This document shows, piece by piece, positions 8,367 through 31,034 of a stretch of DNA of 44,111 nt (position 1 is its first letter; each line of letters begins with the position of its first letter). Origin of the DNA: an uncultured Pseudomonadota bacterium. GTDB taxonomy: Bacteria > Pseudomonadota > Gammaproteobacteria > Burkholderiales > Rhodocyclaceae. The notes beneath the pieces were generated by a model. It searched no databases, had not been told where the DNA came from, and saw nothing but the letters and a program-made list of their open reading frames with translations. The stretch covers positions 1 to 44,111 of the forward strand of contig CAISUK010000193.1 of NCBI GenBank assembly GCA_903888645.1, written 5' to 3'. The translations under genes and the position numbers were made by a program.

Positions 8367-9233
8367 CTACCAAGGCAGCTCGAGATAAAACGACTCGATT
8401 CGCGCAAACGACTCCTCAAATGCGGGCAGGTCATCACCGATATCATCAGCCAATCCAGCGTATTCGCTAGCAGCCATGGCCTTGATCTGTGCATCGCTGA
8501 TGGAGCGCGGGTTGGCTTCGATACCTCGCGAAGCGCAGGACTTAAGGATGTAGCCTGCGATCTGCATACGCTCGTGGTCCGACAAGGGCGCACAGCGACA
8601 CAGCAATAGGTACAAGTCATACACATCCTGCCGCCGATTGCGATGACGGAGTGGCTGCTGCAGCAATGCCCGGTACTTCTCGGCGATCAGGTTGCAAAGC
8701 CCATAGGTCTGGAGCTGCTCGCCGCCCTGCAGGGACAACACTTCGACGTCATACACAGCTTCGTTGTAACTGTGGTCAATCTTGACCACGTCGGGCGACA
8801 TTCCTGCCTTGAGGCGGGCCATGTGCGACGGATTACTGCGTGAAGCGTAGCCGATGCTCAGTTTCAGGGCCGGAAAACTCCCGACCTGGTTGGCCGGAGA
8901 TAGGATGGCGCCTTGCAGTCGACACACGATATCGTAAGGCAGTTGCTGATTTGTCCACTCGAGCTGTGCTTCAAGTTCGGCAAGCAAGGCCTCCTGGTCC
9001 GCACTGCTCCACATTTCGTGTGTGGAGAAGTCGATATCCTTGGTGAACCGGCTGCTGTCGTAGCGGATGGCCATGAGCAGCCCGCCCTTCATGATCATCC
9101 TTGAGCGCAAACCCACGGACGTACTGATGGTCATGAGGACGATATGCACCGCCTGGCGAAATCGGCGCTGATTGGCGGGTGCCGCTGCGACCCAGTGCGC
9201 CAAGTCCAACTCATGCAATTCCTCAGCGTTCAT
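8367..9233 (-). CDS. abiEii: AbiEii/AbiGii-family nucleotidyltransferase toxin (DUF1814)
   Basis: Motifs MKGGLLMAIRY...RFTKDIDF (NTase G-x-D-x-D) and KYRALLQQ...RRQDVYDLYLL. Start taken at ATG 9233 (MNAEELHELD...), overlapping the abiEi stop by 11 nt. The track ORF extends to 9344. Confidence 0.85.
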   Translation of the reverse strand: MNAEELHELDLAHWVAAAPANQRRFRQAVHIVLMTISTSVGLRSRMIMKGGLLMAIRYDSSRFTKDIDFSTHEMWSSADQEALLAELEAQLEWTNQQLPYDIVCRLQGAILSPANQVGSFPALKLSIGYASRSNPSHMARLKAGMSPDVVKIDHSYNEAVYDVEVLSLQGGEQLQTYGLCNLIAEKYRALLQQPLRHRNRRQDVYDLYLLLCRCAPLSDHERMQIAGYILKSCASRGIEANPRSISDAQIKAMAASEYAGLADDIGDDLPAFEESFARIESFYLELPW

Positions 9234-10146
9234 GTCCAGCCTCGCTCCGAGAGGCCAGCGACGGAACGTTGATCGACAGCTGCCAACGCTCCGAATAATT
9301 TGGCGAATACTCGTTTTCTGGATCGAGTTTGCGCGATCCGCCACGCTGAGCGCAGGTTTGCCAGGAGACTATCGTTGCGTGTTCCAAATGGCAGACTTCC
9401 GTCAGCAAGAATCCGGCACGAACCTTGTCGATGGCCGAGCCATTGCGCTCGACCTCATCGATGATTGTCCGTAAGTGCCGCGTTGCTTCTCCCTGAAAAA
9501 CATCGATGACGTGCTGAATACCACCGCACAAAGCCGGCTCGCGCAGCATGTCGAGAAAGACCCGACCGATCGTCGCTACGCGCAGTGGTGATCCCGGGAC
9601 GTGGCGAAAGGCTCCCAGTTGCGAGCGTTCGTGAAATTGCACTGCCGTTTGACCGATGCGGGTCAGGTTCAATCGCGTCAGCTTCGGCAATCCGCTGGCG
9701 ATATAGTCGTCAAACCGCTCCCCGAGCTCCTTGTGCATGCGTTCCCTGGCCTGTTGACGCCATTCGCCAGTTGGGGGCACCGACATGAATGCGACGGCGG
9801 GAAATCGGTCGGTTAGCCCATGATATTCCATGGCACTCAGATGTGAGACGTAGGCGAACGGATCAAGGCTGCAGGCGACCTGCTGGGCCGTGGCATGGCC
9901 TTGGCCGAAGAGCAAATAGGCATGTACGCCGCTCTTGAGCGGCAATCGCGTCAGCAGTCCGACATCGACCAGATGATCGACGACCCCGTGATACAGGGTC
10001 TTCGCTTCTGTATTTTTCCGAGCCATCTGCAGGAACACTGTCTTGGCCAGCTCATATGGCGATACGGCAGCCAGTCCGGCTGAGCTTAGTACCTGGCTCA
10101 CCCTGCTGATTTGTCCCTGCTCGACAATTACGGTAGGCATATACAT
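9223..10146 (-). CDS. abiEi: AbiEi-family type IV TA antitoxin / transcriptional regulator
   Basis: Contains the AbiEi-typical SHLSAMEYHGLTDRFP block. Sits immediately upstream of and overlapping abiEii. ATG at 10146 or 10140. The TTG at 10173 used by the track lies inside the predicted promoter. Confidence 0.8.
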   Translation of the reverse strand: MYMPTVIVEQGQISRVSQVLSSAGLAAVSPYELAKTVFLQMARKNTEAKTLYHGVVDHLVDVGLLTRLPLKSGVHAYLLFGQGHATAQQVACSLDPFAYVSHLSAMEYHGLTDRFPAVAFMSVPPTGEWRQQARERMHKELGERFDDYIASGLPKLTRLNLTRIGQTAVQFHERSQLGAFRHVPGSPLRVATIGRVFLDMLREPALCGGIQHVIDVFQGEATRHLRTIIDEVERNGSAIDKVRAGFLLTEVCHLEHATIVSWQTCAQRGGSRKLDPENEYSPNYSERWQLSINVPSLASRSEAGHER

Positions 10147-10189
10147 TGACTGATAACGTTGTCCTAAGGACAACGTTATCAGTCAATGT
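10143..10189. repeat. Pal1: perfect 47-bp palindrome (23-nt arms, 1 central nt)
   Basis: ACATTGACTGATAACGTTGTCCT-A-AGGACAACGTTATCAGTCAATGT read directly. Overlaps the abiEi start codon region and the predicted -10. Confidence 0.95.
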
Positions 10190-12968: not shown

Positions 12969-14672
12969 TCAGCTTCGCTCCTGCGGTACAAGAACAAACC
13001 CGGCCAGATCGAGGCCCGCGACAAAGCGCGGGTCGAGCACGATGCCGACCGTGACTTTGCCGTTGAACTCGCGCGACAAGGTCGGCGGTTCATCTTGGTT
13101 CGGCTTGACCAGCAAGGCTGTTTCGGCAAGTGCACGCATTGCCAAGGACGGCTGAACGCTACGTCTTGTGAATTCCTCCAGCGGAACGAACACCCCTTGG
13201 GCAATAGTGCATACCGTGGCCGGGCACATGGCCTGGTTGAGGGTGTCAATGGCCTTGGCCAGGGCGTCCCGAACCGCAGGATTTAGGCGCATGGGGGCTT
13301 GCAAAGCGAAGCGTGGCGATGGTGGTGCCGAATCTGTTTTTGGCGAGGCTGCCTTGGGCGTTGGGTCGACCGGAGTTATCGGTACTTCGTGATCGGCAGC
13401 GGGCTCAGTCGCAGGAATCAGTGAAAGCTGGGTGCCGCTTTTCACGGATTTCGGCGACGGCTGGGGGGTAGTTGTCGATGATGGTCTGAACTCCAGCATC
13501 TGGGGCAGCGCCGCTGGGGTTGGATGCATGGCCGCCAAGAGGATGGACGGGGAAGTCAGCTTGACGGCTTCCAACGGCGCCTTCACACCGGGTGGCAGGA
13601 TCGACCAGGTAGATCTACCGGCCGCCGCCGCTTCGAACACTTCGGCTGCCATGAACACCTCCAGCATGGTCTCAGGTGCTAGGCGCATCCCGGCCAGTTG
13701 ATCCGCCTCAAGCAAACGATGAACATCGTCTCCAGCGCCTGGCCACACTAGAAACAGCCCGTCTTGACCGAACCACAGTCGCGATTTCTCGCGATTGGGG
13801 ATCCAGGCTGCGTTGACCTGGGCCAGTCGTCGCAAGGCGTCAACCAAGTAGCGCTCGAGGTGCGAGCCATGCGCCGGCGAACCATGGCGATCGGCATTGG
13901 CGGCAAGGTTGCGATCAATCACCAGTGCTAGCGAGCGGCGAACGAGTTCGTCGAGGATATTGTGGTCGCGATAGATCGGAATGCCGCTGATACTTGCCAA
14001 GAGGTGTGGCACGATGACCGTGTTGCCTTCGGATAGATACAGCATCACAGCGGGTGATACCACTTGGGGCAGGGCGAACAAGCCCAGTCCTCGCGCTTCA
14101 ATTGTCTCTGGGCGCCATCTCAGGAAATAGCGCTTGCTGCCACGGCTTGTCAGCCAGTCGGCCAATGGCAGCAGAAAAGCTGGCCACGTTTCGCCAGAGT
14201 CATTGGTGACGATGACGTGACTCATCAGACGATGCAACTCACAGCACAGGCCGGCGAGGAATGTTGCGTGCCGCCAGCGTGGCTCCAATTGGCGGCGAGC
14301 GGTGATGTTCATCCGCCCGGCGAAGATGTGCGCGTCCGTACCCTGCAAACTGAAAAATGCGGTTTCCATTCCGAGTCGCAGCAGGCCGCCCGGCTGGTTG
14401 AAGTAGTTGTCGGCGGTCGCTGGCAGAAGATGGACGCAGGCCGCATAGCGGCGCACCAGCGTCATGACGTCGCGCTCAAAAGTGCTTGAGTCGGTGCCGT
14501 AGCAGAGCTTGATGCGGGCGATCAGCTGGGCTTCACCAGCCAGCAGTTCTTCAACCGGGATGGCAGCGAAACCCGGGTCCGGGGTAGTGTAGGTGCTGGC
14601 GAGAGGAGGGGGAATGGCCATGGCCGCGCTGCAAAGCATGGACGTCATGCGATCCGCCCATTCTTCGTTCAA
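12969..14672 (-). CDS. traI: TraI-like protein (MOBH / TraI_2-like putative relaxase)
   Basis: 567 aa with block RYAACVHLLPATADNYFNQPGGLLRLGMETAFF resembling the LPAS..HH..GGL..H.LE core of TraI_2 proteins. Pro-rich linker and C-terminal domain. Sits directly upstream of traD as in ICEclc. Start is TTG 14672 or ATG 14648. Confidence 0.6.
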   Translation of the reverse strand: MNEEWADRMTSMLCSAAMAIPPPLASTYTTPDPGFAAIPVEELLAGEAQLIARIKLCYGTDSSTFERDVMTLVRRYAACVHLLPATADNYFNQPGGLLRLGMETAFFSLQGTDAHIFAGRMNITARRQLEPRWRHATFLAGLCCELHRLMSHVIVTNDSGETWPAFLLPLADWLTSRGSKRYFLRWRPETIEARGLGLFALPQVVSPAVMLYLSEGNTVIVPHLLASISGIPIYRDHNILDELVRRSLALVIDRNLAANADRHGSPAHGSHLERYLVDALRRLAQVNAAWIPNREKSRLWFGQDGLFLVWPGAGDDVHRLLEADQLAGMRLAPETMLEVFMAAEVFEAAAAGRSTWSILPPGVKAPLEAVKLTSPSILLAAMHPTPAALPQMLEFRPSSTTTPQPSPKSVKSGTQLSLIPATEPAADHEVPITPVDPTPKAASPKTDSAPPSPRFALQAPMRLNPAVRDALAKAIDTLNQAMCPATVCTIAQGVFVPLEEFTRRSVQPSLAMRALAETALLVKPNQDEPPTLSREFNGKVTVGIVLDPRFVAGLDLAGFVLVPQERS

Positions 14673-14707: not shown

Positions 14708-15340
14708 CTAGGGGATATCCCGTTCTGACTCAACACTGGGGTGATGACTGGGGCCCAGCCTACGAAGATGACTCGCTGTCGTTTGCAGCGTAGTGCGAAT
14801 TGGGTAGGACGCCTGAATGCGGTGGTCCACATGAAAACGCTCAAACAGCTTGCAGAATGGACAAGGCTGACCGCGTTGAGCGACGGTGCCGACCGCGGCA
14901 ATGAACTTGCAGGCGCAATCTTGGCAGCTCAGAATGGATAACGCCGATGTGCTTGCCAGCCAGATACCTTCGATGTAGGAGACGAGGTTGAAAGCCCGGT
15001 CCAGGCTGATGCGGAAGGGTGGCAGGGTCGTAGCCTGGTAGGCGCGATAGGCAAGTATCAGCGCCTCGCCTGGTATGAGACCCTGGTCACGCAGCTGCTG
15101 GTACTTTGCACCGATGACGCAAGCGTCGATACGCATGATCAGGTTGGCCCCGTAATACCAATCGGCAGAATCCGGGGCGCGCCCACGGGGAATGCTGAGG
15201 ACATCCGGGAAGAATAGACTTTGAATCTGGCGTGGTGGGATGCCAGTGATCAGATGAATCGTCTTCAGGCGTGCGCCGAGCGCCGTCAATTTTTTTGCTT
15301 GCTGAACGGCACGGAGGTGCCGATCGCCTCGAGTCGGCAT
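14708..15340 (-). CDS. FlhC-like transcriptional activator subunit (SetC/AcaC-like)
   Basis: LTALGARL, PRGRAPDSADWY and AYRAYQ blocks align with FlhC. Four Cys arranged C-x2-C...C-x2-C (SCQDCACK...CPFCK), like the FlhC zinc site. Confidence 0.75.
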   Translation of the reverse strand: MPTRGDRHLRAVQQAKKLTALGARLKTIHLITGIPPRQIQSLFFPDVLSIPRGRAPDSADWYYGANLIMRIDACVIGAKYQQLRDQGLIPGEALILAYRAYQATTLPPFRISLDRAFNLVSYIEGIWLASTSALSILSCQDCACKFIAAVGTVAQRGQPCPFCKLFERFHVDHRIQASYPIRTTLQTTASHLRRLGPSHHPSVESERDIP

Positions 15341-15355: not shown

Positions 15356-15652
15356 TCAGCGATCATTCATCGGCAAGGGCGGACGCACCAGGGACAGGGG
15401 CCCGGCCAGTGGGCGCGGTGTGCTCAGTAACACGACGAGATCGGTACGTGGCGGAAACAAGGTGGTGTCGCCAATGTGTATCACCAGAGACCACAGGTCG
15501 TCGAGGCTCATGTTCCGCAGATGGTCGGCCTGTGCCGTGTTTAAGGCGTATTTGGAGCACGCTGCCGCAGAGTCATTTTGAAGGCCGGCACGGATGACGG
15601 CCAGCACATGAAGATTGATCCATTCCACGTCGGTAAGAGTCCTTTGACTCAT
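15356..15652 (-). CDS. FlhD-like transcriptional activator subunit (SetD/AcaD-like)
   Basis: 98 aa. WINLHVLAVIRAGLQNDSAAA...LSLDDLWSL...LFPPR aligns with the FlhD helices. ATG 15652 has AGGA 9-12 nt upstream. Sits immediately upstream of the FlhC-like gene. Confidence 0.65.
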   Translation of the reverse strand: MSQRTLTDVEWINLHVLAVIRAGLQNDSAAACSKYALNTAQADHLRNMSLDDLWSLVIHIGDTTLFPPRTDLVVLLSTPRPLAGPLSLVRPPLPMNDR

Positions 15653-15940
15653 GGTCTTGTTCCTTGGTTGGCCCAAGTAATGTAGGTTTTTCGGGCATCG
15701 GTGGTCGAAAATTATCGTCAGATATTCCCGTCAAGATCCAGGTCTCGACGAGCCGGCTCAGCATACGTATTACATAGATGTCATGGCAATGGCGGATGCC
15801 ACGAATCTTTGTTCCTCGATGTTGTTGCCACACGCAAGGCCTGGCTAAAGCCGTCGATTGGGGATTCGCGGTGCTGTCGGTGAACGAAGGGACATGGTCG
15901 CGACGATTGCTGGTGCGCGTAGATCACTGCCGCTTACCTG

Positions 15941-15979
15941 CTGCAAGAAAATGCCACTCACCCGGGGGCGAGTGGCATT
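15941..15979 (-). terminator. Intrinsic terminator after the DUF932 gene
   Basis: 10-bp perfect stem AATGCCACTC/GAGTGGCATT (15950-15959 / 15970-15979) with a GC-rich loop. Followed on the minus strand by TTTCTT. Confidence 0.55.
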
Positions 15980-16053: not shown

Positions 16054-17118
16054 TCAGGCAGCTTCGGCCAGCCCCTTCCACTCATGGGCCGCCAAATCGA
16101 TCAGCCGGCCACCCAGCGCTTCAAACTCCGTCGCGCGATCGTAATCCTCGACCTCCTGGCTGTAGTGAGTCACGGCATTGACCAACCCGTAACCTGACAG
16201 CTGGCCTTCTTCGATCAGGTGGCGCAACACGCCGGCCCGCTCGTTGTCGTTCAAGGTATAGCGTTGCGCCAGTACCTCGACCGTCTTCACCGGGTCACCC
16301 AACAGCGGGATGTTCAAGGTCTTTTGCAGCTTCTGTGCCGTCTGGCGGAAGGTTGCCTCCGACACTGCCGCCTGCACCACGTCGCGCACTTTCAGGAAAA
16401 ACGCCTGGTCATCGGCACGCAAGGTGTCTTCCTGATAGACCTGAATGGCGTCATCCGTGCCACCCAGCGCCCGACCCACGTGCGTCTTGCGCAGCGAGCG
16501 GTCGGGGGCGATCAGGCCGTTGCGGCAGATCAGCCGGAACAGCAATGGCTGCACCGACAGCGTCCCCTGACCGACCTCCGAGTTCGAGATCACGACGCCG
16601 GCCTGCACGACATCACCGGGCGCCATTTCGTATTTCAGGCGTGGCGTGATGCACTTCAGGTACATCTTCGTCTCGGTCAGTTCGACCGACTCGAAGCGGA
16701 CCTCGGGCAGTTGCTGCAGGATGGGCAGCACACTTTCGGCCAGGTCGAAATTATCCAGACGACGATAGCGGTCGGACAATACCGCGCGCACCTGACCGTC
16801 CAGAGTTCGCAGCATGCGCCGGTCATCGTCGCTTTGCAGCCAGGTGTTCACGTTGCGGTCCAGCAACACCGGTTGCTCTTCGCGCATGCGCTCAAAATAC
16901 GCATACGGAATCTTCAATTTTTCGGCCAGTTGGCGTCGGGCCAGCGGCGTGACGCCATAGCGCACCGGACTGCCGCCTTCCTCGACGACGATTTTCGTCT
17001 CGCCACCCTCGGCGGTGGTGTGGTGCACGAGTTGCGAGGGCACGATCAAGTCCTTCTTCGAATGCAGCTGGCGCTCCAGTTCCTGCGCCAGACCAACGAG
17101 AGAACGTCCAATCTTCAT
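16054..17118 (-). CDS. DUF932 domain protein
   Basis: Blocks RAVLSDRYRRLDNFDL, TKMYLKCITP and VISNSEVGQGTLSVQPLLFRLICRNG are typical of DUF932. ATG 17118 has GGAGA upstream. The N-terminal extension in the track ORF is low-complexity. Confidence 0.75.
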   Translation of the reverse strand: MKIGRSLVGLAQELERQLHSKKDLIVPSQLVHHTTAEGGETKIVVEEGGSPVRYGVTPLARRQLAEKLKIPYAYFERMREEQPVLLDRNVNTWLQSDDDRRMLRTLDGQVRAVLSDRYRRLDNFDLAESVLPILQQLPEVRFESVELTETKMYLKCITPRLKYEMAPGDVVQAGVVISNSEVGQGTLSVQPLLFRLICRNGLIAPDRSLRKTHVGRALGGTDDAIQVYQEDTLRADDQAFFLKVRDVVQAAVSEATFRQTAQKLQKTLNIPLLGDPVKTVEVLAQRYTLNDNERAGVLRHLIEEGQLSGYGLVNAVTHYSQEVEDYDRATEFEALGGRLIDLAAHEWKGLAEAA

Positions 17119-17398: not shown

Positions 17399-18409
17399 TT
17401 ACGCCGCACGAGATGCCTGAGCCGGCCAACGCTGCCGCCAGACATCGGCCCAATCGCTGCCCGCGTTCTTGGGAACGAACACGCGCACCTGCCGCAGGTT
17501 CGTTTTCTTCCCTTCGCGTTTCAATCGACGCGCCAGGGCATAGGCGAAGGCCTGGCCGGTGAAATCGCCATCGGCATCGTTGTCGGCATAAATGCATACC
17601 GCGCGTACCGTTTCCGGCATCCACAATTTCTCCAGGTTGCCGGCGCTGAGGCCAGCCCAGACCGGCTTGCCGGTCGCCAGGTGTACCGCGATACCGGTCT
17701 CGATGCCTTCGCTGATCGCCAGTTCCTCGGTGGCGTCGAAGAGACGCACTGCGGCTCCGTTGATACCGGCAGAGAGCACTTTTTTTGCATCGTGGGCCGC
17801 CAGCTTGCCGCCGTCCTGAAGGTAGGTCCGGTGCAGCGTCACGGCATGCCCATCAGCGCCCTGGATGCAGGCCAGCATGGCCGGGTACTCGGCGACCTTG
17901 CGTGACTTGCCGCTGGCATCTTTCTGGTAATAGCCGAGCGCGCCATGGCAGCGCAACACCTTCGGATACGCCGGCAGTGCCAAACTCCGGCCGCTCAGGT
18001 AGCGATCCACCTCGTCGCCTGCCGTGACCGGACGGGCTTCGTTCCAGATGCGCTGCGCAAGCTTCTTCATGGGCGTGGTGGTCGGCTCGGAAGTACGACA
18101 AGTCGCTGCCACAGGCATCACGCCAAGGCAGCGCTCGACATCACGCAATGCCGTGTTGAAGTCCACCCCCATTACCGCCTGCAGCAGCTTGAAACCGCCG
18201 CCCGGGCCACATTGGCGGCAGTGATAGTTGCCCTCGCCGAACTTGTCGGTGTACTGGAAGCGATCCGACCCGCCGCAGAGCGGGCAGGGCAGGTTGCGGC
18301 GCTTGAGAATGGTTTCTGCCACACCCAACGCCGCAAGGATCTCCGTCCAGCGACCATGGGCCCGCTGCTTGACCGTCTCGATGCGTTGCGCATAGTCACG
18401 ATCCTGCAT
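17399..18409 (-). CDS. Zn-ribbon + Toprim primase-like protein
   Basis: CPLCGGSDRF...YHCRQCG zinc ribbon (primase-helicase type). Toprim motifs ISEGIETG and YADNDADGD. ATG 18409 has GGGAG upstream. 14-nt overlap with the upstream GHKL gene. Confidence 0.8.
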   Translation of the reverse strand: MQDRDYAQRIETVKQRAHGRWTEILAALGVAETILKRRNLPCPLCGGSDRFQYTDKFGEGNYHCRQCGPGGGFKLLQAVMGVDFNTALRDVERCLGVMPVAATCRTSEPTTTPMKKLAQRIWNEARPVTAGDEVDRYLSGRSLALPAYPKVLRCHGALGYYQKDASGKSRKVAEYPAMLACIQGADGHAVTLHRTYLQDGGKLAAHDAKKVLSAGINGAAVRLFDATEELAISEGIETGIAVHLATGKPVWAGLSAGNLEKLWMPETVRAVCIYADNDADGDFTGQAFAYALARRLKREGKKTNLRQVRVFVPKNAGSDWADVWRQRWPAQASRAA

Positions 18410-20030
18410 GGTGGGCTCCCAGTGCGACTGGCTGGGTTTCGGCAAACAAGGCTACCGAATGTCCCGGCGCCGAACCCACCCCAACCGTGACCTGGAAGGC
18501 CTTGCCGTGGAGCAGGGGGTATTTGCCCAGCCGTAGTTCCTGCAACAGCGAATCCAGCGTCTGCACCGGATCGACCGAACGCAGGCGACGGATCAGGTCC
18601 GCCAGCGCGTCACGGTCGGCGTTCATGTCCGACTCCAGGTACTGCTCGTTTTCATCGACGAACGAGGAAACTTGACGGACCGGTTCGCCGCTGGTTTCGC
18701 CGGCGGGAATGTACAGGACATCCCTGTGGCAGACCCCACTGTCGACGATCTCGACCACGTCACCCCCGATGCGCACCAAAACAGACTCGCACAGGATCAC
18801 GGTCGGCCACACCCAGCGTCCTTCGAACTGCAAGCGCGTTTGTTCCATCACGGCTTCGACATGCGCTGTTTCATCTTCCAGAAAGCGCACATGCCGTTGC
18901 ACCCAGTGGTCGGGATGCAGACCGATCCAGTCGAAGACCAGGTAGCCCTTGGCCCGAGCCAGCATCCAGTGCGCCGCGTTGCTGTCGTCCATCCAGTTGA
19001 GCGATACCAGCGTCACCGCGCCACTTTCAATGGCTTGGCGAGACGGCGCCACTGATACCTGCCGGACATAGTCGCTGCTGCCGCTGTCATCCTGGATCGG
19101 GTAATCGACGATCGCATCGAACAACTGTGCTGGCAGCACATCGAGATCGTTGAGCAGGTCCAACTGTCCCCAGGCCTGCATGGCCCGATAGTAGGTATCG
19201 ACGAAGTTCGCCGGGGTGAGCTGGTTCTTGGCCGCCTCCAGCGTTCGCCGCCAGCAAGCCTTCAGCTCGGCGTCGATGCGTTTTTTCTGCACATCCTCGT
19301 CAATCAGCTTGTCGCGATCCGGCAGACGCGCCATGAACTGACGCGAGTCGAGATGGACGACATTGACCCGGTCGAGTCCGTAGCCGGTCGGCTTCGTGAC
19401 GCAAAAGCCTTGCAGGAACACCATCGTGTCGTGGCTATGCAGGCCATCTTGCTGACCGGCAAGGCGGATCAAGCCGATTGGGGTAGGCATGGTGGCAAGG
19501 TGTTCGGCGGCAAAGCGTCGCGTCAGTGCTTTGCCGTTGAACCATACCTCCACCGGAAACCCCAGGCACAGGGTCTCGATGCGGTTATCCAGATCGGGTA
19601 GCTCGACACCGTGCAACTCGATCCTGGTACCGGCAACGACTTCGGTGTTGTCTTCGACAGCGAAATACGCCTTGTCCAACGCCGCCGCGGTGTCGATATC
19701 GACGCGCTGGTGGTAGGACGTGACGACGCAGCGCGTCGCCGCATAGAGGCATTTCGAGAAGCCCACGCCGAAGGGATGTTCTTCGGCACTGATCGCCGCA
19801 TTCCAGCCGGACTCGTGGAAGCTCAAGAGCTTCTGGAAGTCGTCCAGGCCGCAGCCGTCATCCTGCACCTGCAGCAAGCGGGCGGTGGCATCGTAATGGA
19901 CATCGATGCGTGCAGCACCGGCGCGGCGGGCGTTCTGCAATAGCTCGGTGACCAGCGTGAAGCGGTCGCTGAAGGCGTAGCGCTGGTTGCGCAGGGCGGC
20001 GGCTTCGTTGAGTCGAATCTGTATTCGCAT
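18396..20030 (-). CDS. GHKL-superfamily ATPase (HATPase_c-like), unknown role
   Basis: Bergerat-fold motifs ELLQNARRAGA (E/N), VQDDGCGL (DxGxG) and HPFGVGF. ~400-aa C-terminal region without recognisable motifs. ATG 20030 has GGAG upstream. Confidence 0.7.
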   Translation of the reverse strand: MRIQIRLNEAAALRNQRYAFSDRFTLVTELLQNARRAGAARIDVHYDATARLLQVQDDGCGLDDFQKLLSFHESGWNAAISAEEHPFGVGFSKCLYAATRCVVTSYHQRVDIDTAAALDKAYFAVEDNTEVVAGTRIELHGVELPDLDNRIETLCLGFPVEVWFNGKALTRRFAAEHLATMPTPIGLIRLAGQQDGLHSHDTMVFLQGFCVTKPTGYGLDRVNVVHLDSRQFMARLPDRDKLIDEDVQKKRIDAELKACWRRTLEAAKNQLTPANFVDTYYRAMQAWGQLDLLNDLDVLPAQLFDAIVDYPIQDDSGSSDYVRQVSVAPSRQAIESGAVTLVSLNWMDDSNAAHWMLARAKGYLVFDWIGLHPDHWVQRHVRFLEDETAHVEAVMEQTRLQFEGRWVWPTVILCESVLVRIGGDVVEIVDSGVCHRDVLYIPAGETSGEPVRQVSSFVDENEQYLESDMNADRDALADLIRRLRSVDPVQTLDSLLQELRLGKYPLLHGKAFQVTVGVGSAPGHSVALFAETQPVALGAHHAGS

Positions 20031-20098
20031 GACATGCTCCATGATTTTCGGCGGAACCCGAGCGCATTGGGTCGGGCCCACCTGGGGAAATGATTTGG

Positions 20099-20416
20099 TC
20101 AGCCGGGAAGGCAGACCGCTGGGGTGAACAACTGGCCAGCAGCGAGTGCTTCGCTCAGGCTGTGCCTGAGGAATGCTGGTGGCAGCAGGTGCTGGGTACT
20201 CTGGATCCGGCCCTCATGATCGAGCCGCTCGACCTTCAGGCCGATCAAGTGCCAATGCACCCGGTAGGCGAGTCGGTCTGCGCCGGCGATGACGAACATC
20301 CGTCCCGGCTGGCCCGTCAAAACTTCGCTTTCCTTGACCAGGAACTCGATCTCTTCCGGCGACTTCACCGTGATGAGCGATGGTCTTTGATTTGCAGTGC
20401 GTGCTTGGGTTTGCAT
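20099..20416 (-). CDS. Hypothetical protein (105 aa)
   Basis: ATG 20416 preceded by GAGGAGA. Sensible composition. Operon-packed, 11 nt after the upstream ORF stop. Confidence 0.5.
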   Translation of the reverse strand: MQTQARTANQRPSLITVKSPEEIEFLVKESEVLTGQPGRMFVIAGADRLAYRVHWHLIGLKVERLDHEGRIQSTQHLLPPAFLRHSLSEALAAGQLFTPAVCLPG

Positions 20417-20426
20417 GGCTGTCTCC

Positions 20427-20687
20427 TCAAAGCACCGACGACAGGCAGGGGCTGCCGTCTTCCGGCGCGCACCCATTGATGCAGGGCGCGCTTCGAGCGA
20501 AAGGAAGGTCGCCGCTCGTCGCACGGGGCTCGCGAATTGCCGATGCCGGTGGCGCTTGGCAGTCGTCGCGTGTTTGCTCCTGCCGGATCTTGTCCAGCAA
20601 TATCGCGTCTTGATAGTCGATGCTTCCGGCAATGCCGTAGCCGACAAATATCGCCAGCAGGCAGCAGACATCCTTGAAAGTGATCAT
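20427..20687 (-). CDS. Hypothetical small membrane protein (86 aa)
   Basis: ATG 20687 preceded by AAGGAA. N-terminal hydrophobic helix CCLLAIFVGYGIAGSI. Confidence 0.4.
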   Translation of the reverse strand: MITFKDVCCLLAIFVGYGIAGSIDYQDAILLDKIRQEQTRDDCQAPPASAIREPRATSGDLPFARSAPCINGCAPEDGSPCLSSVL

Positions 20688-20752
20688 GATGATTTCCTTG
20701 GTTAGCTTGAGCTTCCGCGTTGCCGTGGAAGCTCGATGAATGGGGAACGGGG

Positions 20753-21316
20753 TCAGGCGAACAGGTCGCCATGCGCGGACACCCGCTTGATCTGCTCGTT
20801 GATCCACTGGGGGTTCTTGATCAGTCGAGCCTCGATCCACTCGGGGCGATGGACGACGGCATCGCGTACCCATTCCGGGTATCGCTTGATCGTGGCAGCG
20901 AGCCATGTCCTGACGCCATCGCGAATGTGGTCGCGCATCTCCTCGGCGTCGACTAATCCGCAGTAGGCGATCGGCGACAGAGGACTGCAGCCGACGACCC
21001 GCAGGCAACTCACGAAGGAGAAGGGTTTCCCTTCCTTATCGCGTTCTGTGAATACCCAGCGCAGCGTATCGAACTTTTCTTCGAGGGGTGTCGCCGGCTC
21101 TGCCAGTTGGCTGATTTCGTGAAGCAGGCGCCAATGCAGGAAGACGATGTCTTCCTCGCTCCATTCGATGGGTGAGTCGTCGTCGAGCATGGTTTCAGAA
21201 GTGCTGCAATCAGGGACGGCTGCCGTCCGCGGGTGCAACATCGCGGCGAAGGATGGCGCTGAGGGTCCTGCTGGTGCAGCGCTGAAATCACTGGGGAAAA
21301 TCGTCGGGTTGAACAT
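20753..21316 (-). CDS. Hypothetical acidic protein (187 aa)
   Basis: ATG 21316 preceded by GGAGA. Protein-like composition with an acidic stretch (MLDDDSPIEWSEEDIVF). First gene after a 525-bp divergent intergenic region. Confidence 0.55.
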   Translation of the reverse strand: MFNPTIFPSDFSAAPAGPSAPSFAAMLHPRTAAVPDCSTSETMLDDDSPIEWSEEDIVFLHWRLLHEISQLAEPATPLEEKFDTLRWVFTERDKEGKPFSFVSCLRVVGCSPLSPIAYCGLVDAEEMRDHIRDGVRTWLAATIKRYPEWVRDAVVHRPEWIEARLIKNPQWINEQIKRVSAHGDLFA

Positions 21317-21853
21317 CGTTGTCTCCAAGACAGGCAGGAGGCAACGCGCACCATGACTGGAGGCGTAAGCCCCCAGGGGGTATGGAACGACCGGCGGATA
21401 CAGATCGCGGTCGGCTTCGGGAAAAACTCCAGGACTGGCTAATTCGGCTGTCGTAAAACGCCGGGATCGGGTTGCCAGCGACCGATCGAGTCAAACTTTC
21501 GGGGGAGGGGTGTCAGGGTAAAGTCAGGGACGCCTCACCTCTGCCTCGAAAGCTTACCTCGATGGCATGGATGCGACAGGCACGCGAATTGGTTGCCGAT
21601 ACAAACGTCGCGCGCAGTTCCACTGAAATCGTACAGCGCGAAATCTGAGACTCCAAGGCTTGCCATCGTTGCATGCAGGGCTAGCTACTGCATGGCATAA
21701 CGATAGCGGTCGAAGTTTTCCGGGTCAATAGCGATTGAACGGTTCAATCGCGCTCAATGCCGAAATCCCCCTCAGGCGGCGGTCATTTCGGGTGGCGATT
21801 GCATGCGCTGCGTCGGAAGATTGCTCTGACCGGATTATTTCGAGGAGCAATGC

Positions 21854-22594
21854 ATGTCGGAAACACAAAACGTCAAGGTGGATCAGGGTGGCGTCAATGC
21901 CCGAATTCTTGCCAAGGAAGCCAAGGCCGACTTCCGGCGGGTCGAGGCAGCCAGCCTCAAGATGCCTACCCGCTTTACCAGCGCCGAGGGCAAGCGCTTC
22001 TTTGCACGCTTGTTCAATACCCTGCAACTCAACACGCACTTCATTTCGGTGATCGCCCGCACACGCCTGGACCACGTCGATATCGCCAAGATTGAGACCA
22101 CCATCCGAACCCAGATGGACGCAGTCACCGAGAACCTCAACAAGGCGATCGACTGTGCCGAGGCGCTCTTCAAGGCCCATGGCATTAACAGCACCGCAAC
22201 CTATGACACGGTACCGCTGGACGTGGACGTCCATGTGCTGTCCTCGATCGGTCGCCGCTTTCTTGAGGTCTTGGGGAAACTTGACCAGGTGATGCCTTTG
22301 CTGCAAACACTCGAGATTCATGAAGTAATCACCACCCAGGCCGTGGATATCCAGCGGGCGAGCCTGAAACGGCAGGTGCGCGACGTGGCCAACGGGGCGC
22401 GCAACTTTGCAACCGGGCTGCGACGAAGGATGAATATGATGATTGCAACGGATGGTGTGGAATCCCTCACCGCAACCGATAAAGAGACAACGGTCCAGAG
22501 TGGCACCGATAGGTTCGATGAAGTCGCATCGGATGACTCTGCATTGGCGATCGGATCGGACTTGCAGGACTCCGAAACCGCGACATCCAAATAG
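21854..22594 (+). CDS. ICE protein, DUF1845 / PFL_4669-like (TIGR03761-type)
   Basis: GAGGAG RBS. Blocks ATYDTVPLDVDVHVLSSIGRRFLEVLGKLDQVMPLLQTLEIHEVIT and GLRRRMN match my recollection of DUF1845 proteins. The opposite-strand 326-aa ORF has non-protein-like composition. Confidence 0.55.
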   Translation: MSETQNVKVDQGGVNARILAKEAKADFRRVEAASLKMPTRFTSAEGKRFFARLFNTLQLNTHFISVIARTRLDHVDIAKIETTIRTQMDAVTENLNKAIDCAEALFKAHGINSTATYDTVPLDVDVHVLSSIGRRFLEVLGKLDQVMPLLQTLEIHEVITTQAVDIQRASLKRQVRDVANGARNFATGLRRRMNMMIATDGVESLTATDKETTVQSGTDRFDEVASDDSALAIGSDLQDSETATSK

Positions 22595-23065
22595 CATTTC
22601 AGAGTCCGGTTTATTTGGGTTCCACTCTAGCAAGGAAATGCCTCTCCCAATCGCCCGCGTATTCCCTCCCTTACGGTAGGTGTATCGCCAGCGGACTGGT
22701 GGCAACTGCCCGAAGCCAATAAGCTACATCCCGGTGAGCACTGCATCGATCATTGACTGCAGTGTTCATCTCCGCCACTCTGATGGCGGCGTCGCAGTCG
22801 ATACCTGCCCCATTTCCGGCGATTGGCTTGCCCGAGCATTGCGGGGTCAAGCACAGATCGGCCGATCAAGCCCGATACGGACGCCTATGACAGCAAGGCG
22901 TCGTGATCCTCTTCGTTATCTATTCATTCATGCCACGTGATGGGGACGCTCGTGGCGTGCCGACGAGATTTGCGTTCCATATCGGCTCGCGCCCTTCTGA
23001 CCAAGCGCGGCCGCGAAAGAGCAGGTCATATCCCTTTCCGCCGTCAGCCGAGCCGAGGACCGATC

Positions 23066-23329
23066 ATGCCCAGCATATGCACCAGTTCACTCATAACGAC
23101 ATTGTCATCTCAATTAATTTCTACTCGCCCTTCAATTCAAACGCTCCCCGAAACTGGCTTTCTTCGCCAGCCGCAGGTGTTGGCGTTTGTGCCAATCTCC
23201 AAATCGACACTCTGGCGACGCATCCAGGCGCGCACCTTTCCCGAGCCCGTCAAGCTCTCGGAGCGGGTGACGGTCTGGCGCGCCGAAGATATCCGCCGCT
23301 GGATTGCGAAGCAGGGCCAGACGACCTGA
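23066..23329 (+). CDS. alpA: AlpA-family regulator / excisionase-like protein
   Basis: C-terminal HTH block FLRQPQVLAFVPISKSTLWRRIQARTFPEPVKLSERVTVWRAEDIRRWI is typical of Phage_AlpA. ATG 23066 has GAGGA upstream. Confidence 0.8.
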   Translation: MPSICTSSLITTLSSQLISTRPSIQTLPETGFLRQPQVLAFVPISKSTLWRRIQARTFPEPVKLSERVTVWRAEDIRRWIAKQGQTT

Positions 23330-23365
23330 TTAAGTAACTAACAGCGGGTCCTGTGAATGTAGGTC

Positions 23366-23408
23366 ACCGTGCGCAGCCAGTCAGAGACTGAGCGCACGGT
23401 TTCCTCCT
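23366..23408 (+). terminator. Hairpin / weak terminator after alpA
   Basis: ACCGTGCGC...GCGCACGGT 9-bp stem extended by CAGTC/GACTG, followed by TTCCTCC. Confidence 0.4.
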
Positions 23409-23566
23409 GGCTGATTCCATGTCTGGGTCGTTCCCCGGCAAGCACATGACATTCCCCTGATAACGAAAGCCCCCGCATTTCAAGCCGATTTCGCCTGGCG
23501 ATTGAGGCGTCGAGGCTCGAAGATTCGTACCGGTGACACTCCAAGAGATTTAGGGAGAGATCGGTA

Positions 23567-24508
23567 ATGCAAGACAATCAGGAGGCTGTTCGCTACCGCG
23601 AAAACGCGATGCAATCGGTGCAGATGTTGCGCGATGTGCTTGACGGTGATACCTACGAAGTCGTGGCGCTACGCTTTGGCGTCACGCGCACGGCGGTCGA
23701 GCGACGCATCAAGTCTATCGCCGTCCAGCTCACCCAGATCGTGGGCGTCGAAGGGCTCACCGAGGAGGGTGCCGCATTTGTCCGTCGTCTGCGCCTGCAT
23801 CGAGAAGCCATATTACATGCGCTGGAAAGCTTCGAACCGCAGCTGCCGGTTGGACTTCGGGCGGCGCGCGTGATGTCCCAACCGGAGGTTAAACAGGGGG
23901 CCGTTCGCATCAAAGGGCGTACCAGTCGCACCGCGCATGACCTGGCGCTCTACTACTTGCTGTTCGCAACCGGTTTGCGTCCGCTCGAAATTGCCCGCCT
24001 CGAAGTGCGTGACTATCTGCATGCCGATGGCAGCGTTCGGCGGGAGTCGGAACTACGCGCCGATACGGCCATCAACCGCAAGTTGCGGCCACTCTACTTT
24101 AGCAGCAGCAAACTGGACGATATGCTCACAGACTACTTCAGCGAACAGCTGCAGAACCATCATGGCCTGAGTACGCAGGGGCATTACCGCGGACTTGAGC
24201 CAAGCAGCCGCCTGTTTCTGTCCCCGGTTGGTGAGGCCTACCCGATAGAGCCCAACGGCGATTCGGGACAAAACCGATTTGTGTGCCGAAAGCTCCTGGA
24301 TATCTACCGCAAGTTGTTTCGTTATGCCGAAATCAAGGGTATGGGTTCGCAGTCGGCGCGCCTGACCCTCATATCGCGGATGTATGAACGTGGTGCTGAT
24401 GAAGATCAGGTCGGCACGATTCTGGGCATAGCCGAGCGCAGCGCCGTGCGTCAACTGTTGCCTCGGCCCAAGCCAACGCTGGCGGAATTACTTGACGAAT
24501 TGGTCTGA
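23567..24508 (+). CDS. Tyrosine-recombinase-fold protein with N-terminal HTH; catalytic residues apparently missing
   Basis: Box I-like ATGLRPLEIARLEVRDY is present. At the expected HxxR position the sequence is QSAR, the LGH position reads LGI, and there is no Tyr in the last ~40 residues (ILGIAERSAVRQLLPRPKPTLAELLDELV). The N-terminus YEVVALRFGVTRTAVERRIKSI looks like a sigma-r4/LuxR-type HTH. Confidence 0.6.
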   Translation: MQDNQEAVRYRENAMQSVQMLRDVLDGDTYEVVALRFGVTRTAVERRIKSIAVQLTQIVGVEGLTEEGAAFVRRLRLHREAILHALESFEPQLPVGLRAARVMSQPEVKQGAVRIKGRTSRTAHDLALYYLLFATGLRPLEIARLEVRDYLHADGSVRRESELRADTAINRKLRPLYFSSSKLDDMLTDYFSEQLQNHHGLSTQGHYRGLEPSSRLFLSPVGEAYPIEPNGDSGQNRFVCRKLLDIYRKLFRYAEIKGMGSQSARLTLISRMYERGADEDQVGTILGIAERSAVRQLLPRPKPTLAELLDELV

Positions 24509-24516
24509 GAAGGCAC

Positions 24517-25725
24517 ATGGAAAGCCAGCGTCTTGCCATCAAGGGTCGGGTCATTGAGATGACAGATTCATTGTTGCAGGAAAGGCTGGCCGAAGTGCAC
24601 GACACCCCCGAGCGGCCACGCTGTCTCTGCGTTCCGGGCGGGGTGGAGATGTATGTGGCGCGGCATCGCCAGTTCGTGGTCAAGCGTATGCCGGAGAGTG
24701 GTCATACCCACCACCCAAGCTGTCCCTCGTATGCGCCAGAGGTGCAGCAATCCGGACTCGGCGAACTTCTCGGCGAAGCCGTGCTGGAGACAGAGCCTGG
24801 GCGGGTCGAGCTGCGCGTGGATTTTCCGTGGACGCGGAGGCGCGGGCGCGGCGTGGTGCTTGGCGAACCCCAGGACGTGGCAGATGTCGCGGTACCGCAG
24901 CGGCGCATGTCACTGCGGGCCTTGTTGCATTTCCTGTTCGAACGTGCCGGCTTCAATCGCTGGAGTCCGGCCATGGCAGGCAAGCGCAACCAGGGTGTGC
25001 TGCGCAAGTATCTGTTGGAAGCCGCCGAAGATGTCACGGTTAAGGATTTGCCACTGGGTGAACGCCTTTACGTTCCTGAAACCTTCAGCGAAAGTGGCAA
25101 GGCCGAAGCGGCGCAAAGGCGGCGAGAAAAGCTGGCAGTCCTGCGTCCTCGGGAGGGACAGTGCCCGCTGGCCGTGGTGATCGGCGAATTCAAATCGAGC
25201 GAGGCGACGCTGCATGGGCAACGGATTTGGATCCGGCATATGCCGGATGCTCCGCTCTTGATCGCCACCGGCAGTTGGAACCGGATCGAGCGGGTTTTCG
25301 GGCCCTTGTTCGAAGCGCGAGACGCCGATTCCAGGCATGCGGTCCGGCTGATCCTGATCGCACTGATCCGCGCACGTCGCGAATACACTTACGAGATCGA
25401 CGCAGCCAGCATGATGCTGACCAGCGCGCAGTGGATTCCGGTCGAGGGTGTGCACGAATTGCCAATGATCGACGCCTTGATCGCCCAGGAGCGCCGCTTC
25501 ATCAAGCCGATGCGCTATGACGCCAGGAGCGCAGCCGCCTTTCCGAATGCCTTGCTGCTCGATGCCGGGTCGCTGCCGATACCGCTTCATGTAATCAGCA
25601 CTTACATGAATCCAGAGGAGCGCTCAATGAAGGAGAAGGCAATATCGACGGGTAACCGGGAGGCCTGGTTGTGGCTGACCGATCAATCGATGCCGGCTTT
25701 TCCAACGATTGTTGGACGAGGCTGA
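24517..25725 (+). CDS. DUF1173-like protein (Cys/His-rich N-terminus)
   Basis: 402 aa. N-terminal RPRCLCVPGG...HTHHPSCPSY cluster. C-terminal ERRFIKPMRYD...FPNALLLD...IPLHVIS block. Starts 8 nt after the recombinase-like gene stop. Confidence 0.55.
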   Translation: MESQRLAIKGRVIEMTDSLLQERLAEVHDTPERPRCLCVPGGVEMYVARHRQFVVKRMPESGHTHHPSCPSYAPEVQQSGLGELLGEAVLETEPGRVELRVDFPWTRRRGRGVVLGEPQDVADVAVPQRRMSLRALLHFLFERAGFNRWSPAMAGKRNQGVLRKYLLEAAEDVTVKDLPLGERLYVPETFSESGKAEAAQRRREKLAVLRPREGQCPLAVVIGEFKSSEATLHGQRIWIRHMPDAPLLIATGSWNRIERVFGPLFEARDADSRHAVRLILIALIRARREYTYEIDAASMMLTSAQWIPVEGVHELPMIDALIAQERRFIKPMRYDARSAAAFPNALLLDAGSLPIPLHVISTYMNPEERSMKEKAISTGNREAWLWLTDQSMPAFPTIVGRG

Positions 25726-26463: not shown

Positions 26464-27375
26464 CTATATTTTGGCAAAGAAGCGCCGCAAGTGGTGGGAG
26501 ACTTCCATCGGCGCCTCCTCGGGCAGAAAGTGGCCGCAGTCGATTCCAGCCCCGGTCGCGAATTGTGCCTTCTCGCGCCATACCGCGAGCACGTCATAGT
26601 TGCGGCCGACAAATCCATTAGCTCCCCATAGTGCGAGGAGTGGGCAGCTTATCCGGTGGACTTCGTCTTCCCGATCATGCTCCAGGTCGATGCCGGCCGC
26701 CGCGCGGTAGTCGTCGCAACTGGCGCGGATGGCTTCCGGATCGGCAAAGCAGCGCACGTATTCGGCGAGAGCCTGCGGCGCAAAAGCCTTTTCGTTGCCA
26801 TGGCTCCAGCGAGACAGGCAACCGCGCAGCCAGGCTTCCGGGTCGGCACCGATCATGCGCTCGGGCAGCGGTGGCGCCTGAATCAGGAAGAACCAGTGAA
26901 AATATGCGGTGGCCAACGCTTGGTCAGTCAGTGCCAGTGTCGTCGACGTCGGCGCTATGTCCATCACACAGGCAGCAGTAACGCGTGCTGCGTGATCGAG
27001 ACAGAGGCGATGCACAACTCTCGCGCCACGGTCGTGGCCAGCAACATAAAACGTCTCATGGCCAAGAACCGTCATGAGATCCGCAATGTCCTGCGCCATT
27101 GCTCGCTTCGATTGGTTCGCGGCACGGGGAACCGAACGGGGCTTCCCGGAATCGCCGTAGCCTCGCAAGTCAGGAATGACGAGCGAGAAATTGTCAGCCA
27201 GCAGCGGCGCTACACGATGCCAGATGACGTGAGTCTGGGGATAGCCGTGCAGCAAAACAAGTGTTGGCTTGCCGGCATTTTCGCGGGCCAGAAAATGGAT
27301 GATCGTGCCATTCACCGGAATTTGCCGCGGGACAAAGGTCGAGTCGAACAGGGTCACAGTAGGCGTTGGGTACAC
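26464..27375 (-). CDS. Alpha/beta hydrolase, haloacetate dehalogenase H-1 / epoxide hydrolase-like
   Basis: [32 protein letters not shown] and nucleophile elbow [11 protein letters not shown] start. Confidence 0.8.
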
Positions 27376-27505
27376 AATTTAGCGAGACGGGCTGACCCTA
27401 GTTTAGGGCATCCCAAACTAAACGCGCAATTCAGCAATCCGAAGGTGCGCTGGAGAAACTGCGATTAAGCAACGGCTACGCCGTTAACAACAGTATTGTT
27501 CAACA

Positions 27506-27958
27506 TTAATCAGAGTTGATTACAAGTCGGTTTTGGATGTTGCTATAAGCCATCGCCACAACGTCTTTTAGACGATGTCGTACATGATTGAGCGCTGCAA
27601 TGTTGTCTGAGAGGCCATTGTCTAAAACTCCAATAATGACATCAGTCGTACTGTCAATTAGACCGTTGAAGTGCTCAAGGGAGATTTTGAGATAGAGGTG
27701 ATTGACTATGGCCTCTTGGAGCATGATCTTCGTGACGATTGGATTCTGAATGATGGCCATCAAGCTGTAAATGGTCTGCGTCACCATCTCGCCTTCCATC
27801 TCTTTGGCTTTGTTTAAGCTCAGTTCGGTAAATGTTGCTCTAACCTGCGGATACTTAGCGTAGTAATTTTCCATTACAGGTTTAGTGATATCTCCGAGGT
27901 TCTCGGCAGCGAGACCAAGTGCTTCTTCTATCAGATTAATGTCTTGGGTAGGATTCAC
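27506..27958 (-). CDS. Globin-like protein
   Basis: 150 aa, AT-rich gene. N-terminal ENLGDITKPVMENYYAKYPQVRATF resembles the bacterial globin-family A/B helices. GTG start with AAGGAAA upstream. Confidence 0.5.
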   Translation of the reverse strand: MNPTQDINLIEEALGLAAENLGDITKPVMENYYAKYPQVRATFTELSLNKAKEMEGEMVTQTIYSLMAIIQNPIVTKIMLQEAIVNHLYLKISLEHFNGLIDSTTDVIIGVLDNGLSDNIAALNHVRHRLKDVVAMAYSNIQNRLVINSD

Positions 27959-27987
27959 GATATATTTTCCTTTTGTGCTGCCAATTA

Positions 27988-27995
27988 AAAAAACT
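27988..27995. repeat. Target-site duplication AAAAAACT (left copy)
   Basis: Identical 8-mer abuts both ends of the ISL3 element. Confidence 0.85.
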
Positions 27996-31030: not shown

Positions 31031-31034
31031 AGCC

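Follow-up and report, generated by a model that had tools for sequence, protein, structure and literature searches.

A GHKL-type ATPase gene overlapping a conjugative primase gene on an integrative and conjugative element: a possible role in early replication and establishment

What does a GHKL-type ATPase do when its gene overlaps that of a Toprim-domain protein on a mobile element? The question is raised by a contig of an uncultured Rhodocyclaceae bacterium (GenBank assembly GCA_903888645.1, contig CAISUK010000193.1), of which positions 1–44,111 on the forward strand, all 44,111 nucleotides (nt), were analysed and are called the window here. An earlier note, made from the sequence alone, had placed the gene pair within an integrative and conjugative element (ICE) and had offered three roles for it: an establishment/replication module, a defence or anti-defence device, or a split topoisomerase-like machine. 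The genomic context favours the first of these, whereas the split topoisomerase and the defence device are unsupported. We regard it as about an even chance that the pair forms an early replication/establishment module in which the ATPase serves as an accessory.

The pair occupies the minus strand as follows:
18396..20030, minus strand: predicted GHKL-type ATPase gene, 544 amino acids (aa), acidic, isoelectric point (pI) 5.2
17399..18409, minus strand: predicted stand-alone DnaG-like conjugative primase gene, 336 aa, basic, pI 9.3
18396..18409, minus strand: overlap of the ATPase gene, ending in TGA, with the primase ATG, 14 nt

The ATPase open reading frame (ORF) at 18396..20081 on the minus strand encodes 561 aa from a GTG; the ATG at 20030 gives 544 aa beginning MRIQIRLNE, agrees with the start of all homologues (MQIQVRINE) and is preceded by GGAG at 20040–20037, 6 nt 5' of it. 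The primase ORF (17399..18445, minus strand) holds an ATG at 18409 from which 336 aa beginning MQDRDY are read, with a Shine–Dalgarno-like GGGAG at 18420–18416, 6 nt 5' of the ATG and within the ATPase gene. The 14-nt overlap described in the earlier note is present at 18396–18409. The last ~9 residues of the ATPase, which are disordered, are overprinted where the primase gene begins, and a conserved 'HA' close to the ATPase C-terminus simply reflects the overprinted primase ATG and the codon after it.

As judged from its domains, the Toprim protein is an ordinary stand-alone DnaG-like conjugative primase:
18194..18298, minus strand: primase-type zinc ribbon, residues 38–72 (CPLC...CRQC); Pfam Zn_Ribbon_Prim, E 1.8e-10, above the cut-off
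17741..18067, minus strand: DUF7146, residues 115–223, which precedes Toprim in the primase family; Pfam, above the cut-off
17429..17722, minus strand: Toprim domain, residues 230–327; Pfam Toprim_3, E 4.6e-18, above the cut-off

The primase-type zinc ribbon and intact Toprim domain, recognised earlier from the motifs SEGIETG and DNDADGD, are confirmed by these Pfam matches and by the invariance of the acidic residues: E234, G235, E237, D276 and D278 do not vary in eight relatives, down to 33% identity. E234 and E237 belong to the first motif and D276xD278 to the second, and a third, DWAD, comprises D319, W320 and D322. Toprim primases are characterised by a 'DaN-' motif before strand 4 (Iyer et al., PMC5512222, which also defines the Toprim motifs); the candidate site reads DW[A/S/L]D, with D319, W320 and D322 invariant and the N position occupied by A, S or L. 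In DUF7146, the basic set HRT193–195, K202, K210 and R222 is invariant in the alignment of relatives. Residues 12–327 match phrog_510, 'DNA primase', with E 7.5e-67 (positions 17–348 of the 667-position model), and, under the label 'toprim domain-containing protein', homologues are present in 3590 plasmid records, of which 2930 are conjugative, IncC-type plasmids included. PDB sequence searches with the primase, as a single sequence and as a profile, returned nothing significant (best profile match E 0.18, none to Top6A), and PADLOC v2 gave marginal matches only, to DnaG-like parts of DRT models (E ~3e-4).

Toprim_2/3/4 domains are those of DnaG-like primases of elements with type IV secretion systems (T4SSs), and among such primases TraC1 and SogL pass into the recipient, where they prime DNA synthesis (PMC5512222). 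TraI_2, TraD, TraK, TraB and TraV are all encoded in the window, and the primase is thus encoded on a T4SS element, as are RP4 TraC1 and R64/ColIb Sog. With these two and the primase domain of phage-plasmid P4 alpha it shares the arrangement of a zinc ribbon ahead of a Toprim core that contains E and DxD; unlike them, it is short (336 aa) and stand-alone, lacking helicase, ArdC and peptidase modules. The window primase is also translationally coupled to a GHKL ATPase, a feature for which TraC, Sog and the IncC/SXT homologues have no described counterpart.

The invariance of its motif residues makes the 544-aa partner very probably an active ATPase. Three regions can be distinguished:
19581..20030, minus strand: Bergerat-fold ATP-binding domain, residues 1–150; Pfam HATPase_c_3, hhalign and conserved residues
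19131..19580, minus strand: putative transducer/S5-like module, beta-rich with long helices, residues ~151–300; predicted secondary structure and weak Foldseek matches
18399..19130, minus strand: alpha/beta region, residues ~301–544, confidently folded in the model; no detectable relative

Pfam HATPase_c_3 matches residues 27–132 (E 4.8e-6, above the curated cut-off), and Pfam finds no match in the remaining ~400 residues. The motifs that had been read as intact in the 544-aa protein (ELLQNA, DDGCGL and FGVGF) were all found, with key residues invariant in the family: motif I is ELLQNARRAGA (E29, N33), motif II DDGCGL (57–62), motif III PFGVGF (FGVGF 87–91) and motif IV GT135. In a 52-sequence alignment reaching down to 21–25% identity, E29, N33, D57, G59, G61, G88 and G90 are invariant and T135 is kept in at least 90%. 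Family-specific motifs are ESGW, LQG, LPDRD and HW. The second module carries LQG (Q207 and G208 invariant) and LPDRD (P237 and D238 invariant, R239 in at least 90%), and the very acidic segment 301–450 (pI 4.6) contains an invariant H375–W376. The conserved R235/R239 or Q207 may serve as a gamma-phosphate sensor.

The ATPase has the Bergerat E-x3-N, DxGxG and GT elements in common with MutL and Hsp90/HtpG, FGVGF being an Hsp90-like motif III, and it is acidic like Hsp90. Comparison of its profile by hhalign gave a probability of 97.4 with E. coli MutL, over residues 24–175 only, and of 96.9 with HtpG, in an alignment ending at about residue 165. MutL was also the top match of phmmer against the PDB, and no sequence match extended beyond residue ~177. 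The homology to MutL and Hsp90/HtpG ends at about residue 175, and the ATPase has no significant MutL_C or Hsp90 middle/C-terminal domain: NCBIfam MutL models scored 15–21 bits against cut-offs of 180–750, with no MutL_C, and the Pfam HSP90 family (middle and C-terminal domains) gave no match.

Structural models extend this picture. The AlphaFold2 model of the whole protein has a mean predicted local distance difference test score (pLDDT) of 89.5, and residues 145–544 modelled alone reach 92.5. In Foldseek searches of the PDB, the top matches of the whole model were all of the Hsp90 family (TRAP1, Hsc82, HtpG and GRP94), and in the viral models of BFVD they were RIIA, Hsp90-like proteins and topoisomerase II ATPases. 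Residues 145–544 alone matched nothing in the PDB at E<=1e-3; the weak best matches were the TRAP1 middle region (E 0.034) and MORC2 (E 0.11, probability 0.93, 156 columns), with GyrB/ParE transducers at E>1. Because this part alone matches nothing significantly, the Hsp90 resemblance stems from the ATP-binding domain, and the description 'Hsp90-like over full length' was rejected. The protein is therefore a GHL-type ATPase, whose transducer-like second module is plausible but unproven. In the models, residues ~300–544 are a novel domain that matches no known fold, and the C-terminal region that had been called uncharacterised indeed has no Pfam, sequence or fold match.

The ATPase represents a large, unnamed family of stand-alone proteins that is specific to conjugative elements (plasmids and ICEs). 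Of the more than 400 close relatives returned by sequence search, none has a name more specific than 'ATP-binding protein', and a profile search of 1.84 billion representatives collected 831 clusters at 50% identity with E<=1e-30. The best 150 family representatives align end to end at 514–798 aa, and no informative extra domains were found in the longest members. Among 185,579 species-representative genomes scanned, there are at least 530 family loci. The family is present in 76 plasmid records, roughly 50 times fewer than the 3590 of the primase family, and is essentially absent from 50,697 phage records; IncC and SXT plasmids bear the Toprim homologue and not the ATPase.

Could the pair nevertheless be a DNA-cleaving machine? 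The earlier note had seen in it the logic of a type IIB topoisomerase or of a MORC/paraMORC-like conflict system, in which the GHKL protein would gate DNA cleavage by the Toprim protein. The arrangement itself invites this reading, as a GHKL gene is followed by a translationally coupled Toprim gene and the catalytic motifs of both are intact, and Topo VIII and Mini-A are type IIB relatives on mobile elements (PMC4117785, PMC7671362). As in Topo VI, in Topo VIII and in Mini-A, GHKL stands beside Toprim on a conjugative element, and the Toprim E and DxD are conserved. In type IIB enzymes, however, the A subunit has a 5Y-CAP domain with the catalytic tyrosine, the B subunit combines the Bergerat fold with an H2TH domain and a transducer bearing a switch lysine, and the B and A genes of Topo VI are invariably in tandem or fused (PMC7671362). 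The pair has no 5Y-CAP domain or catalytic tyrosine, no H2TH domain or transducer was matched significantly in the ATPase, and the pairing is not obligatory, the invariable tandem of Topo VI not being kept across loci. The Toprim protein consists of a zinc ribbon and DUF7146 beside its Toprim domain and has a full-length primase match; Pfam and PHROG scans found no 5Y-CAP or TP6A_N in it, and without 5Y-CAP it therefore lacks the defining feature of a type IIB A subunit. GyrB reached an hhalign probability of 10% with the ATPase, against ~97% for MutL and HtpG, the likeness being limited to residues ~19–175.

The comparison with MORC proteins fares no better. The ATPase resembles MORC/paraMORC proteins in being a stand-alone GHKL protein with a C-terminal extension peculiar to its family, and its second module may be S5-like, but it has no nuclease or TIR C-terminal domain and its context is conjugative DNA processing. 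The genes of paraMORC proteins lie in the neighbourhood of restriction–modification methylases, superfamily II (SFII) helicases and nucleases (PMC2292703); restriction–modification, SFII helicase and nuclease genes are absent from the context of the ATPase, and PADLOC v2 runs on the ATPase, DUF932 and upstream genes matched no defence model. Both the split type IIB topoisomerase and the paraMORC assignment were rejected, as the pair lacks their defining features, and we consider it extremely improbable that either describes it.

How closely the two genes travel together was followed in 80 GTDB loci, 80 metagenome loci and several look-ups; gene junctions were taken from ORF analysis, the ATPase tail being too variable for tblastn end coordinates. 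Co-occurrence beyond the window element, for which a neighbourhood survey had been proposed, is borne out in a widespread ICE family. The order ATPase–primase–DUF932–FlhD–FlhC–TraI holds in every sufficiently long locus of this family, and the exact 14-nt overlap recurs in about 62 of 77 loci with ATPase identities of 49–78%, including Pseudomonas (Pseudomonas helleri) and Burkholderia ICEs. Culturable carriers of the block in the survey are Thauera butanivorans NBRC 103042, Dechloromonas agitata DSM 13637, Achromobacter ruhlandii LMG 1866, Piscinibacter sakaiensis 201-F6, Burkholderia vietnamiensis and Pseudomonas helleri. The exceptions show overlaps of 8–11 nt or gaps of 3, 35–39, ~155 or ~290 nt. 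Within the family, identities are 58–78% for the ATPase, 65–87% for the primase and 74–91% for DUF932, the ATPase evolving faster than its neighbours.

Outside the ICE family, 21 distant loci were informative. In 11 of them a same-strand primase gene lies within 6–8 kb, two of these being DnaG-type and so of a different primase family. The primase gene is 55–80 nt downstream of the ATPase in L167 and L169; it is 1.4–5.4 kb off on the same strand in L005, L100, L101, L108 and L109, and two Nitrospirota elements have a DnaG-type primase 7–8 kb upstream of the ATPase. In one plasmid lineage a ribonucleotide reductase (RNR) gene lies exactly between ATPase and primase (L001, 9949–12411; L091, 11998–14496). 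An obligate pairing does not hold, given 3590 plasmid records for one family against 76 for the other and the separations listed below, and we infer that the association is facultative.

A facultative association keeps independent function a serious rival, although we think it somewhat unlikely. On this account the overlap would be a compaction of the operon that was inherited within a single ICE lineage; the primase would prime alone, and the ATPase would have a task unrelated to priming. The roughly 50-fold excess of the primase family on plasmids fits it well, as do the ten distant loci without a nearby primase and the repeated loss of the overlap with retention of both genes. It is harder to square with the persistence of the exact overlap while the ATPase diverged to 49% identity, with the same-strand primase within 6–8 kb in 11 of the 21 distant loci, two of them with a primase of the different, DnaG-type family, and with the 55–80 nt spacing in the distant L167 and L169.

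Several of these facts, and some others, also weigh against the establishment module. No ATPase–primase fusion occurs among the 150 best family representatives; an apparent one in L052 was rejected, as the ATPase stops at 11599. At least four lineages lack the overlap with both genes intact, and adjacency within the ICE family, where all genes are syntenic, may by itself be inheritance. Outside that family, 10 of the 21 informative loci have no primase gene in 6–10 kb (L002, L003, L004, L006, L092, L095, L102, L104, L154 and L168), and on the complete plasmid pGSUB1 ATPase and primase are 105 kb apart on opposite strands. The transducer assignment is statistically unsupported (best E 0.034). 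Contact between ATPase and primase is putative, and the acidity of the ATPase and its place among small early genes would suit an anti-defence role just as well.

We nonetheless propose an accessory role for the ATPase in early replication or establishment because of four features taken together: the translational coupling; the charge complementarity between an ATPase family of pI 4.7–6.0 (median 5.05) and a primase of pI 9.3; a recurring theme of primase, RNR, tmk, UvrD and SSB genes; and the absence of a nuclease or DNA-cleavage module. The co-directional block starts from a divergent regulatory region, passes through DUF932 and FlhDC and reaches traI and traD; it would constitute an early 'DNA replication/establishment' operon. 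Like RP4 TraC and R64 Sog, the primase would synthesise primers on the single strand, whether transferred or rolling-circle. The ATPase would be made in a fixed ratio with the basic primase and would assist either it or the same replication step; driven by ATP and dimerising, this accessory would serve as a matchmaker or remodeller, much as MutL or Hsp90 does. It would neither cut nor pass DNA itself. The partnership would be facultative, the primase family working without the ATPase in most plasmids and the ATPase having no primase next to it in roughly half of the distant elements.

The gene theme is drawn from the distant loci, where DnaG-type primase, UvrD, RadC or SSB genes lie near ATPase members. 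On pGSUB1, where such nucleotide-supply genes lie at 97961–100129 and 204899–205555, tmk adjoins the ATPase and RNR adjoins the primase. Nucleotide-supply genes more generally stand beside distant ATPase or primase genes, namely class II/III ribonucleotide reductase and dTMP kinase, with thyX elsewhere on pGSUB1. The two Nitrospirota (Manganitrophus) elements encode a 376-aa protein with a phmmer match to the window DUF932, 2.7 kb upstream of the ATPase (L093, 6132–7271; L096, 6151–7281). The block there comprises genes for a Gp3-like protein, DnaG-type primase, UvrD, RadC, the 376-aa protein, an 854-aa protein, the ATPase, and 389-aa and 1282-aa proteins; the large proteins that flank the ATPase are conserved between L093 and L096.

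A more specific alternative, which we consider very unlikely, involves a helicase. MutL activates UvrD at a nick, and the ATPase could, in a MutL-like way, load or activate a UvrD/Rep-type helicase where the relaxase nicks, supplying the unwinding that the helicase-less MOBH (TraI_2) relaxases cannot; the primase would then prime the displaced strand. The N-terminal domain fits MutL as well as anything (probability 97.4, and MutL as best PDB match in phmmer), the family occurs on MOBH elements, and UvrD-type helicase genes lie near several distant members. The likeness is limited, however, to a generic ATP-binding domain, is equal for HtpG and includes no MutL C-terminal domain, and helicase genes are common in mobile elements anyway, none being linked in the window.

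An anti-defence or establishment factor acting early in the recipient is also conceivable, though we judge it quite unlikely. Such an ATPase, working on the logic of the phage GHKL protein RIIA or of acidic anti-restriction proteins, would neutralise a host system and take no part in replication. RIIA proteins are the best viral fold matches (E 6e-12 to 1e-8), the family is uniformly acidic, distant members lie in long co-directional arrays of small genes of the kind typical of early or leading regions, and the ATPase evolves faster than the primase and DUF932. Yet the RIIA matches are no better than those of any protein with a GHKL and a second domain (TMq 0.35–0.41), and phage genomes essentially lack the family. 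A 'leading region' is not established, because scans for promoters/terminators and inverted repeats did not locate an origin of transfer (oriT). PADLOC and PHROG gave no match to the ATPase, the PADLOC models being of defence and not of anti-defence systems.

A stronger form of the establishment module would make the ATPase and primase a dedicated complex in which a GHKL dimer, gated by ATP, loads the DnaG-like conjugative primase, positions it or remodels it. The primase might, for example, be kept export-competent through the T4SS or be assembled on the incoming single strand. We regard this version as rather doubtful.

The genes surrounding the pair are:
16054..17115, minus strand: DUF932 gene, always directly downstream of the primase in the ICE family; Pfam DUF932, phrog_1362 with E 5e-56
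15356–15676, minus strand: FlhD-like activator gene, assigned by synteny
14708–15340, minus strand: FlhC-like activator gene; Pfam FlhC and synteny
12969–14672, minus strand: TraI_2 relaxase gene; Pfam TraI_2
20099..21328, minus strand: two or three small conserved genes upstream of the ATPase, among them 'up191' (20753–21328) and 'up190' (conserved part ~20099–20440)
21854..22594, plus strand, divergent: AcaB-like regulator candidate, 246 aa; sub-threshold match to AcaB PF08900, E 0.0017

On the minus strand, the order 3' of the primase is DUF932, FlhD-like, FlhC-like, TraI_2 (MOBH) relaxase, TraD and DUF4400; beyond DUF4400 comes an AbiEi/AbiEii insertion and then SLT, OmpA, TraK, TraB, DsbC and TraV. 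The insertion comprises an AbiEii toxin gene (Pfam E 2e-25) and, upstream, a faint AbiEi match (8367–10173, minus strand, between the DUF4400/TraJ-like and SLT genes), and this pair within the transfer operon looks like type IV toxin–antitoxin or abortive-infection cargo. The 377-nt gap between the DUF932 and FlhD-like genes contains a near-perfect palindrome at 15950–15979 with 14-nt arms (AATGCCACTCACCC GG GGGCGAGTGGCATT), which could be an operator, an attenuator or part of oriT.

Upstream of the ATPase, the small genes at 20099..21328 show 47–77% identity across all ICE-family loci, have no match in Pfam, PADLOC or PHROG, and probably open the ATPase–primase operon. A small upstream gene was considered as the 'true' conserved partner of the ATPase and rejected: BLASTP-clustered upstream ORFs are conserved only in the ICE family and in L001 and L091. 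The intergenic region 21329–21853 has a promoter-like site at 21728–21700 (minus strand), overlapped by a perfect 10-nt inverted repeat at 21731–21751, and the two are suggestive of a candidate operator of the operon. The Piscinibacter homologue of the divergent AcaB-like candidate is labelled DUF1845 in RefSeq. AcaB, FlhDC and MobH also occur together on pGSUB1 (NZ_CP010312.1, Geoalkalibacter), an SXT/IncC-like MOBH plasmid that in addition encodes type IV CRISPR-Cas (csf1-5, 156529–163120), several IscB/TnpB genes and two TrfA initiators.

On the plus strand, an AlpA-like gene, a gene for a tyrosine recombinase with an N-terminal HTH_23 domain and a DUF1173 gene follow in a row (22937–25725). 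The same trio adjoins the module in the Pseudomonas helleri ICE (L089, 5603–8144) and may be a conserved recombination or excision module. Farther on, the cargo at 26464–35832 has a G+C content of 0.49–0.56 against ~0.61 and encodes an alpha/beta hydrolase, a TetR regulator, a cytochrome P450 and a flavin monooxygenase; it looks like a catabolic or oxidative gene set.

The element is of the 'phn island' type, built like SXT/IncC; features of that type are FlhDC-like activators, an AcaB-like regulator, an F-type T4SS and a MOBH TraI_2 relaxase. It is taken to be an ICE because its close relatives sit inside chromosomes, namely of Rhodocyclales and Burkholderiales. The placement within an ICE is thus supported by these relatives and by the conjugation genes, but not by the window itself, in which no tRNA gene or recognisable element ends were found and which alone could not prove it. 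In Delftia sp. Cs1-4 the phn island is ordered traD, traI, FlhC ... primase and includes an F-type T4SS (PMC3318190); it is filed in a review as an ICE of 'unidentified family' (PMC9960961). Its backbone is as in the window, with traD, a TraI_2-family traI, FlhC, a 'primase' a few genes on and an F-type T4SS, and neither paper mentions the ATPase in connection with it. The whole module is found twice in the Rubrivivax sp. RP6-9 chromosome (NZ_CP187368.1, at 1.28 Mb and 5.74 Mb; L064 and L068), marking two related ICEs, and twice in Dechloromonas sp. CZR5 (L018 and L022).

A search of the literature found no description of the ATPase family or of the ATPase–primase pair, and a deletion study of Rts1 names neither primase nor ATPase (PMC10838148). 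The primase is known, whereas in the literature searched neither the ATPase family nor its coupling to such a primase has been described; the observation in the earlier note that a plasmid-primase label leaves the ATPase partner unexplained was well founded.

Conjugative primases are textbook components, and we know of no ATPase partner described for them. How transferred DNA becomes established early on is poorly understood for MOBH elements, which include SXT/IncC relatives and environmental ICEs with catabolic and resistance cargo. Excluding a topoisomerase or defence identity stops a tempting mis-annotation of the pair. If the dedicated complex were true, the family would be a general 'establishment ATPase' of MOBH-type elements, with the acidic C-terminal domain as its client-binding part. 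The function of the ATPase, once found, would annotate hundreds of elements and might reveal a new use of the GHKL engine, whether in protein remodelling, in helicase or primase loading, or in anti-defence.

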